Assembly (NCBI RefSeq): GCF_988243305.1
Contig: NZ_OZ547136.1
DNA length: 64,000 nucleotides
Reading direction: 5' to 3' (one strand)
Shown: in pieces, positions 4,407-5,635 of the stretch
Numbering within the stretch: the first letter of the stretch is position 1
How the letters are laid out: every line of letters starts with the position of its first letter
Made by a program: the position numbers and the translations under genes
Notes under the pieces: generated by a model
What the model saw: only the letters and a program-made list of their open reading frames with translations
The model's database searches: none
What the model was told of the DNA's origin: nothing

Positions 4407-5635
4407 AGTAACCTCACTATACACAGATATAAAAGCACTGCAATTCTGGCTATTAATAGCAAAAATAGCAGTCAAATCAATATGAGGTAAAAATTTTTGT
4501 TGATTTAATGGTTAAATAATAACCACAGTGTGTTTTGCTGCTGAAGAAAGACAAAATGAATCTGTGTGTCCCCTCCTTCCCTTCAGAGCACATCCACTAT
4601 TCAAATTTTACACAACCACGTACGAACAAAAAGCATCATCCCGGGTATTGCAGATACCGGTTTCCTGCCGGGATGAATCATAAACAGAACACCGGGAATA
4701 ACGCCTTCAGGAATCCCCCCCTCCTGAAGAAGAATAAAATAAAGAAGACTACAGTTCCTGCACTGAATGCTGAGTACAATATTCTATGGACAGGATGACA
4801 TATTTATAAATAACAAAAACCATTTAATACTGATACATCAATAAAATACTTCCTCCCTGCTGACGCAGATAAAATGCACCATTTTTTCTTCAAATACCTC
4901 TGTATAATCGCCAGCCAATGATGAGAATGGATTAAAATAACACTTCTTCGACAAACACAAAAACAGCCTTCATTTTACATCATCATCCAGTTTCAGTTAA
5001 CCCCGGACGAGCGACAGTGTTTCAGTACAGGAATTAAAAGCCAGCTTTTGCTCAGTAAAAACACACTCAACTAATAATATCTCAGCAGATATTATCCTGA
5101 CCAGGACACCTCACATTACTGAATTCTCTTCCGACAGTATCACTGCACAAATAAAAAAGAACGGGATAAATATTCAGACCGGAAGAATGGTGTCACAAAA
5201 GCATTTAATCATTACGCATGACCAGGAAGGGAAACACTTAACCACATGGTATCAACAGATATCATTACGTGTGCACTCTTATAAAAAACACACAGAAGAA
5301 GTAAGATAATTATAAATGTAAATTTAATATCTCCCACTGACATCTCCCCCACAATACACTGAAAAATACTCACAGCAGTAAACACAGACACACCTGATAA
5401 TCATGCAGCCGATAAATATTTTCCCCTTTACGGAGAAATCAGCCTGCTGTTTAACAATAACGGCGTATTTTCATGGAAGGAGATCACCCAGTAACGGATA
5501 AGTCCTGATCTCCTTCATGTTAATACGCAACAATCCCATCGATTAAAAACAATTTCAGACAGATATTATCTCCGTGAATCCCCCGCCACCTTTCCGGTGC
5601 GCGGGGTTTTGTCTTTTTTCACCGGGAATACATGT

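Follow-up and report, generated by a model that had tools for sequence, protein, structure and literature searches.

A composite, probably mostly functionless intergenic region with a conserved GTPase leader in a CP4-44/CP4-57-type island of Escherichia coli

The spacer and the slot it occupies

The locus sits at the CP4-44 position of non-K-12 E. coli and its region is 99.9% identical to E. coli strain AH01. In the window, i.e., the whole stretch of 64,000 nucleotides analyzed, the His leader is found at 30042 and the JUMPstart element at 54123. An AlpA-family HTH gene comes first in the local order, followed by a hypothetical gene, a YfjI-family (DUF3987) gene, the spacer, a YeeP/YfjP/YkfA-family GTPase gene, the IsrC/IS102 RNA, and agn43. 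Gene starts were taken from the RefSeq/PGAP annotation of a 99.9%-identical locus (L001), by which the left edge of the spacer is formed by the YfjI-family gene (2922-4406, minus strand, tblastn identity 99.8%) and the right edge by the GTPase gene (5636-6508, plus strand). By these starts the intergenic region extends from 4407 to 5635 (1,229 bp). The initial annotation had described a slightly shorter spacer, at 4476-5596; the stretch is indeed free of credible ORFs, but those limits do not hold. The start that had been assigned to yeeP at 5597 is an in-frame GTG, and since this GTG lies inside the terminator hairpin of the leader described below, with the PGAP start at ATG 5636, we regard it as an over-extension by the ORF caller. 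In none of the genomes listed does RefSeq annotate a feature within the spacer.

Comparison of homologous islands showed that this position is occupied elsewhere by defense genes or unknown ORFs, a point that the initial annotation had left to be checked. Directly upstream of the conserved promoter box that precedes the GTPase gene, sister islands carry Gabija GajB (1e-251), a type III methyltransferase or, in the case of K-12 CP4-57, RnlAB/AbpA, while others carry unknown ORFs of 290-400 aa in low-GC DNA, with their stop codons at or just before the box. On plasmids, the same module of leader, GTPase gene, and WYL gene was found beside other defense-like genes and IS elements. The spacer body, of 0.9 kb, is located in the variable cargo slot of the island. 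The layout is that of P4-like/CP4-57-like islands, e.g., yfjI...rnlAB...yfjP in K-12, with the spacer placed between a yfjI-type gene and the leader of a yfjP-type GTPase gene; unlike those hot spots, the slot in the window has no gene but ca. 0.9 kb of non-coding DNA and an insertion-sequence relic.

The part of the spacer next to yfjI (4407-4530) contains a perfect palindrome, GCTATTAATAGC, at 4449-4460, and has a three-way identity of 0.68-0.80 among the spacer haplotypes described below. To judge from their position, these ca. 120 bp presumably carry the yfjI promoter and operator.

The top strand had been described as A-rich and the spacer as AT-rich, and both are correct. The GC content of the spacer is 0.35-0.42 and its AT skew is +0.14 to +0.31, with a base composition in the body of 37% A, 24% C, 15% G, and 24% T. 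Binding of H-NS to the spacer is plausible given the low GC content. It should be noted that the top strand is also strongly G-poor (15%), a feature absent from the initial annotation; this marked strand asymmetry counts against the explanation favored below.

Divergence, coding potential, and origin of the spacer body

Of 5,426 complete E. coli genomes, 1,857-1,866 contain at least 80% of the spacer, and it is often shared by several islands of the same genome; carriers include AH01, an APEC O78 strain, and an O145:H28 strain. Everything beyond its last ca. 90 bp was absent from all other species sampled. Among all the fetched loci there were only three haplotypes, together with one variant at 96% identity. 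The haplotypes differ from each other by 12-23% over the spacer, with 111-179 gapped columns in the alignments, vs. 9-19% at the four-fold degenerate sites of the two flanking genes (3-8% over the whole genes), and therefore the spacer as a whole appears to evolve at an approximately neutral rate. The three-way identity is fairly flat along its length (0.55-0.8) and clearly higher in the last 90 bp, with two somewhat better conserved blocks in the body, at 4607-4680 and 5250-5310. As just three haplotypes were compared, a short functional element inside the body may be compatible with this neutral-looking divergence. One of the haplotypes (L004) has an extra insertion of 71 bp, some of which corresponds to the left-end region of an IS21-like relative. 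At 5079-5096 the promoter box recurs in part (89% over 19 nt, E = 0.2); this second copy was discarded, as it is not kept in the other haplotypes. Neither k-mer, tandem, nor internal repeats were found in the spacer beyond chance, and a role as iterons or as replication origin serving the primase-like YfjI protein was rejected.

The initial annotation was right in seeing no credible ORF in the gap: no open frame is kept between haplotypes and none has protein homology. The 87-aa ORF at 4535-4798 (plus strand), already doubted there, is not a gene, its frame being broken in L004 and shortened in haplotype L005, and the databases contain no relatives of it other than short ORFs predicted on this spacer. 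Another open frame, of 102 aa, is disrupted between haplotypes by indels of 29 and 71 bp.

One of the origins that had been suggested for so long a gap is a decayed cargo gene, in this case a plus-strand gene of ca. 300-400 aa that would have decayed past recognition. The sister islands make this conceivable, as they hold intact low-GC plus-strand ORFs of 290-400 aa that end exactly at the promoter box, and in other islands the slot is filled by defense genes. The top strand of the spacer has more A than T, the same as the cargo ORFs of the sister islands, and a plus-strand frame is open across 4523-5071 save for four stop codons. However, no known gene could be recognized. The ten longest frames gave no credible match to NCBIfam or PHROGs, the longest frame compared with 5.8 billion proteins retrieved nothing but E. 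coli "hypothetical proteins," short and partial, that had been called from this very DNA, and a conceptual plus-strand translation of 183 residues, searched with HMMER against 1.84 billion representatives, gave four matches of 64-89 aa, all spurious ORFs of the same spacer. Nor was there homology between the spacer body and the ORFs of its neighbors. There is no 3-base periodicity in the body, and G is depleted (C > G, GC skew -0.23) where the intact cargo ORFs have an excess of it (G > C, +0.03 to +0.24). The stop codons, 16-30 per frame, are near the 25-27 calculated from base composition. Perhaps the filler did derive from a gene decayed beyond recognition, but we consider such a remnant an unlikely explanation for the body.

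A non-coding RNA had also been proposed. Together with its variants (a long or small RNA, or a long untranslated leader that, e.g., by loading Rho, would silence or insulate the island), this would account for the maintenance of the spacer at ca. 1.2 kb in so many E. coli genomes, often in multiple copies, and for the two better conserved blocks. The top strand is C-rich and G-poor, which is the composition of Rho-utilization sites. Nevertheless, the divergence is at or above the level of synonymous sites, with frequent indels, and the spacer is missing from the other species sampled. Covariance models of Rfam 15 run over 3800-7200 at E <= 1 detected only IS102/IsrC, at 6612-6815 and hence outside the spacer, and in a search of the whole window at the gathering threshold there was no match within 4407-5635. 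The candidate hairpin in the best-conserved block, a bottom-strand terminator at 4640-4676, fell short of significance (z = -1.4 to +1.1) and is disrupted in the variants, and we could not detect significant structure outside the insertion-sequence relic and the leader. Promoter-like hits were 5, vs. 4.1 expected from shuffled sequences. Such an RNA in the body is, in our view, very unlikely.

The reading that we favor, i.e., that the body (4531-5461) is non-coding, near-neutral filler of the cargo slot, seems a good deal more probable, and its length, which had been taken as a sign of function or decay, would then be that of neutral filler. The spacer as a whole is probably a composite and mostly functionless intergenic region of a CP4-44/CP4-57-type island, with a promoter-leader at the GTPase end.

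The inverted repeat and IS21-family ends

The inverted repeat upstream of the GTPase gene was located as claimed, with a loop of 19 nt and one GATC in each arm. Its perfect core is of 11 bp (5476-5486 and 5506-5516) and the arms extend to ca. 24 nt (5463-5528). As RNA it would fold at -30 kcal/mol (z = -6.5), and 0 of 200 shuffled sequences were as good. The two GATC sites of the repeat are the only ones in the spacer, where ca. 4 would be expected from composition, so there is no enrichment.

The origin of these arms could be traced through full-length elements. The decisive result came from viral contigs, as in IMG/VR loci the left end, TGCGTATTTTCATGAAAGGAGATCACTCAATAAC, follows at least 10 distinct flanking sequences and always has the same continuation. 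One of the loci (L187) contains this left end followed by istA (NF033546, 1e-92), istB (NF038214, 4e-80), and a right end, ...TCACCGATCTCCTTCACGGTAATACGCA, which is the right arm of the repeat. In a further locus (L038), there is a full element named ISEc12 in the RefSeq annotation and, ca. 90 bp beyond it, a solo element of 62 bp that is made up of exactly 34 nt of the left end and 28 nt of the right end and is flanked by a 5-bp duplication (CCAGG). The element in the window (5462-5529, 68 bp) aligns over its full length to this joined miniature, with ca. 30 of 34 positions matching at the left end and 21 of 24 at the right end (manual count), and has the same MITE-like organization, i.e., left terminal repeat, ca. 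10 nt, right terminal repeat. Elements of the IS21 family have TG...CA termini and sub-terminal repeats of the inverted repeat that serve as transposase-binding sites. Here, the full element and the solo copies begin with TGCG and end with CGCA, and the ends of the L187 element hold at least 5 copies of GGAGATCAC or of its complement. The GATCs of the hairpin are part of this repeated motif.

Solo copies are scattered in accessory DNA, at intergenic sites unrelated to each other. One follows cdtC on pVir68 and another an STM1630-family gene; others lie in a PerC island and beside a restriction-modification methyltransferase, with a half copy between the Ag43 and DUF932 genes. In prophages P-EibA and P-EibC the repeat adjoins eaaA/eaaC, with the GenBank label "stem_loop"; the P-EibA copy is flanked by a 5-bp duplication (TTAAG), and the flanks of the AF5 copy match at 4 of 5 bases. 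The insertion is also polymorphic at our locus: haplotype L005 lacks 73 bp holding the element and aligns on both sides of it, at a junction that is not a perfect empty site. The window copy is a sub-variant, CATGGAAGG...CCCAATAAC, whose full-length parent was met among the fetched loci only as an end fragment (L133-type).

With arms that match both ends of a full istA-istB element, the family termini, the motif repeated in the full-length ends, 5-bp duplications at some copies, and a dispersed and polymorphic distribution, the GATC inverted repeat is almost certainly an ISEc12-like miniature of an IS21-family insertion sequence with its terminal repeats joined. The window copy departs from the others in that its first T is mutated to G and no clean duplication is recognizable, ACAAT being present on both sides but with the left one displaced by 3 nt. 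The 68-bp miniature would have inserted into the E. coli-specific filler. A two-GATC hairpin near agn43, which is controlled by Dam and OxyR, is easily mistaken for a regulatory element, but a regulatory or Dam-related function was rejected, as the arms are insertion-sequence terminal repeats and the whole element is missing from L005.

The leader in front of the GTPase gene

Outside E. coli, only the last ca. 90 bp of the spacer (5543-5635) were found. The similarity begins sharply ca. 90 bp upstream of the GTPase ATG, as 31 loci of other Enterobacterales and dozens from metagenomes show, with genera that include Salmonella, Citrobacter, Enterobacter, Serratia, Yersinia, Hafnia, Photorhabdus, Xenorhabdus, and Pectobacterium. 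Of the 5,426 complete E. coli genomes, 4,269 have the leader ahead of GTPase genes, as do many further Enterobacterales. Its conservation exceeds that of the gene behind it: a box of 30 nt is 77-90% identical across genera, vs. 57-64% for the GTPase coding sequence and 38-51%, i.e., the random level, for the 200 nt further upstream. The box contains a predicted GTPase promoter of the sigma-70 type (5543-5569, plus strand), with a -35 element TTAAAA at 5543-5548, a 15-nt spacer (AATAATTTCAGACAGA), and a -10 element TATTAT at 5564-5569. In the alignments the consensus is TTnAAA, the conserved 15-nt spacer AATAATTTCAGAYAGA, and TATTAT or TATCAT. A spacer of 15 bp is unusual, and our generic promoter scan, which allowed for 16-18 bp only, did not call the box. 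At the same place K-12 yfjP has TTGAAA-15-TATCAT in the same layout. This is the promoter that was predicted for the rnlB-yfjP and perR-ykfA spacers of K-12 by the authors of a genomic SELEX study, in which RpoD holoenzyme bound both spacers in vitro (PMC3946193).

Past the predicted transcription start, near 5576, there is an intrinsic-terminator-like structure on the plus strand, with a hairpin at 5581-5606 (-18.5 kcal/mol) and a T tract at 5607-5619 (TTTTGTCTTTTTT), and after it a weak Shine-Dalgarno (GGGA, ca. 5624-5627) and the true ATG at 5636 (5624-5638, PGAP start). Unrelated stems fall out of register in an alignment, so hairpins were detected sequence by sequence with a shuffle control. 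Ca. 10 nt after the box the leaders have a GC-rich hairpin with a T-rich tail, and 36 of 38 distinct leaders pass a terminator criterion (10 of 190 shuffles), a number that becomes 27 of 38 at -12 kcal/mol or better (1 of 190 shuffles). There are 35 distinct hairpin sequences, belonging to at least 5 unrelated stem families, and the distance from box to ATG is constant at 80-85 nt. The leader is probably a promoter followed by a terminator. The regulatory region that the initial annotation had suspected in the spacer would thus be present at its 3' end, as the promoter-leader of the GTPase gene, and not in the remainder.

With a promoter placed directly before a strong terminator, expression of the GTPase operon should require read-through. 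We propose that RNA polymerase would start at the box and mostly terminate within the leader, at an intrinsic terminator located at about +5 to +44, immediately after the start and ahead of the weak Shine-Dalgarno and the ATG. The GTPase gene and those behind it would then need regulated read-through, by attenuation or antitermination, under a putative regulator, and the terminator might also shield the operon from transcription coming out of the upstream cargo. That the read-through is actively regulated we put forward only tentatively. If it is, the leader would control, in very common islands, a module that includes Ag43 and the CbtA/CbeA toxin-antitoxin.

Promoter-proximal terminators read through by processive antiterminators have been described for lambdoid PR'-tR' with Q and for PalpB-tB of P. 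aeruginosa with AlpA (PMC7969949, PMC9371919), and StxS is an example of an sRNA that arises from the short terminated transcript (PMC7547250). The cassettes share with our leader a strong intrinsic terminator some tens of nucleotides after the promoter, before the first gene of a mobile-element operon, and the interval between -35 and -10, where Q and AlpA bind, is unusually conserved in the leaders. They differ in that no gene similar to Q or to P. aeruginosa AlpA is evident in the island, and no 3' end, i.e., no terminated RNA, is reported at the yfjP or ykfA leader in the K-12 Term-seq tables (PMC7815308), although the promoter could be silent under those conditions. By inspection of the alignment, the initially transcribed region has no -10-like pause element, the conserved GTGAAT behind the -10 being without A at position 2. 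The AlpA of the island was rejected as antiterminator; it is a 68-aa protein of the Phage_AlpA/Xis-like type, not a homologue of the 21Q-like P. aeruginosa AlpA (>140 aa), and the name is coincidental. We consider it doubtful that the 90-bp unit of box and terminator is an undescribed, widely conserved Q-like switch outside phages, with an island or helper factor on the promoter spacer permitting read-through. In this reading the switch, placed at the boundary between variable cargo and the conserved CP4-type module (GTPase, WYL regulator, DUF932, antirestriction, RadC, and CbtA/CbeA), would hold the whole module off. In 14 of 19 loci there is a WYL/YfjR-like gene close downstream, and its product is our guess for a candidate operator-binding protein. 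For YfjR itself, the single target named by gSELEX is "the yfjR operon," and no binding was detected by ChIP-exo.

The box and hairpin might instead be a site acting at the level of DNA, such as an origin of transfer or of single-strand initiation in a mobilizable island. Read on the bottom strand, an inverted repeat comes first and a conserved single-copy sequence after it, an order seen in many oriT; the stem of the E. coli leader may resemble IR2 of the R388 oriT, and the downstream genes (antirestriction, RadC-like, DUF932) recall the leading region of plasmids. On the other hand, the hairpin is followed by a T tract in 36 of the 38 leaders, a terminator feature that has no role in oriT, the stems are unrelated between clades while the promoter-like box remains constant, the distance from box to ATG is fixed, and RNA polymerase holoenzyme binds the homologous spacers of K-12 in vitro (PMC3946193). 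In addition, the plasmid modules sit among IS elements and defense genes with no relaxase or oriT adjoining. A DNA-level site is therefore extremely unlikely, and we retain the promoter and terminator.

The spacer and its hairpin are ordinary, and the leader is modestly interesting, with no description found in the literature searched and no Rfam entry. Likewise, the literature searched for sRNAs of yeeP, yfjP, or ykfA, for Esr41, and for YfjR had no bearing on the spacer. Two minor candidates within the leader were discarded, a leader peptide (21 codons from GTG 5575, PPPP among them, with a stop that overlaps the ATG), whose frame is lost in other genera, and a CRP site (ykfA appears among the CRP SELEX targets), for which inspection revealed no TGTGA-N6-TCACA. 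Finally, Hafnia- and Pectobacterium-type leaders lack a candidate outer helix between the pre-terminator region and the Shine-Dalgarno (GUGAA/UUCAC, AUCUCA/UGAGAU) that many of the other leaders share.

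A conserved leader ahead of the GTPase gene

The GTPase genes of the YeeP/YfjP/YkfA family have kept, across Enterobacterales, an upstream leader that appears to consist of a promoter box followed by an intrinsic terminator, and this box is more conserved than the GTPase coding sequence itself. The leader is located at 5543-5635 in the window, at 3613-3712 in the K-12 yfjP locus (L163) and around 4906-5003 in further comparison loci (L007-L018, L021-L025 and L033). Rfam has no entry for it. The true start of the GTPase gene is the ATG at 5636, in agreement with RefSeq; the GTG at 5597, chosen by a mechanical ORF call, falls within the terminator hairpin. 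A frame of 21 codons, opening at GTG 5575, also runs across the leader (5575-5639), encodes PPPP and ends with a TGA stop that overlaps the GTPase ATG (ATGA). This frame is probably fortuitous, since other genera do not preserve it. On the bottom strand (5581-5606), the E. coli terminator stem reads GCGCACCGGAAAGGTGGCG, with TGTCT further on, a combination that may be reminiscent of the IR2/nic region of the R388 oriT. This likeness belongs to the E. coli version; the stems of other clades are unrelated.

Gene content on both sides of the leader and GTPase gene

Directly 5' of the leader there is a cargo slot, the contents of which vary from one island to another. Its recognisable occupants are Gabija, a type III methyltransferase and AbpA/RnlAB. 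In addition, several unassigned ORFs of 290-400 aa lie there in low-GC DNA; these had no match in PADLOC or NCBIfam and may be uncharacterised defence genes. Such contents were seen at 767-4818 in L008, 2560-4710 in L007 and 1-3356 in L163, and about 3700-4917 in L010, L012, L015, L016, L018, L021, L023 and L024. Directly 3' of the GTPase gene, most non-E. coli islands, as well as Klebsiella plasmids, carry a gene for a WYL-domain (YfjR-like) regulator (about +1088 from the GTPase start in loci L008-L018; 10227-10940 in L167). In the window, this position is occupied by agn43 (6680-9955), the 5' end of which is overlapped by the IsrC/IS102 RNA (6612-6815; Rfam RF00124, 253 bits). The RNA region opens with a cluster of GATC sites, which corresponds to the Dam/OxyR phase-variation region known from agn43 regulation and is distinct from the GATC sites of the 68-bp IS21-family relic at 5462-5529.

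The spacer body and the region upstream of yfjI

The body of the spacer (4531-5461, ca. 0.9 kb) has a strong strand asymmetry (G 15% versus C 24%, A 37% versus T 24%) that is common to its three E. coli haplotypes. The K-12 rnlB-yfjP spacer has a similar GC skew (-0.20), but its AT skew (-0.07) is unlike that of the window. Haplotype L004 carries a 71-bp insertion (about 3840-3905, corresponding to window position about 5213) that includes the perfect palindrome GATCACGGTTTGGCCAAACCGTGATC. The right-hand portion of this insertion matches sequence in the left-end region of another IS21-like element, present in L133 and L039. Within the inverted repeat AATAATATCT/AGATATTAT, the box motif recurs in partial form at 5079-5096 (TCAGCAGATATTATCC); this second copy is mutated in L004 and L005. 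At 4437-4472, 45-65 bp 5' of the yfjI start, the perfect 12-bp palindrome GCTATTAATAGC is followed by an AATAGCA repeat; this element, well kept in the three haplotypes, could be an operator or promoter element of yfjI.
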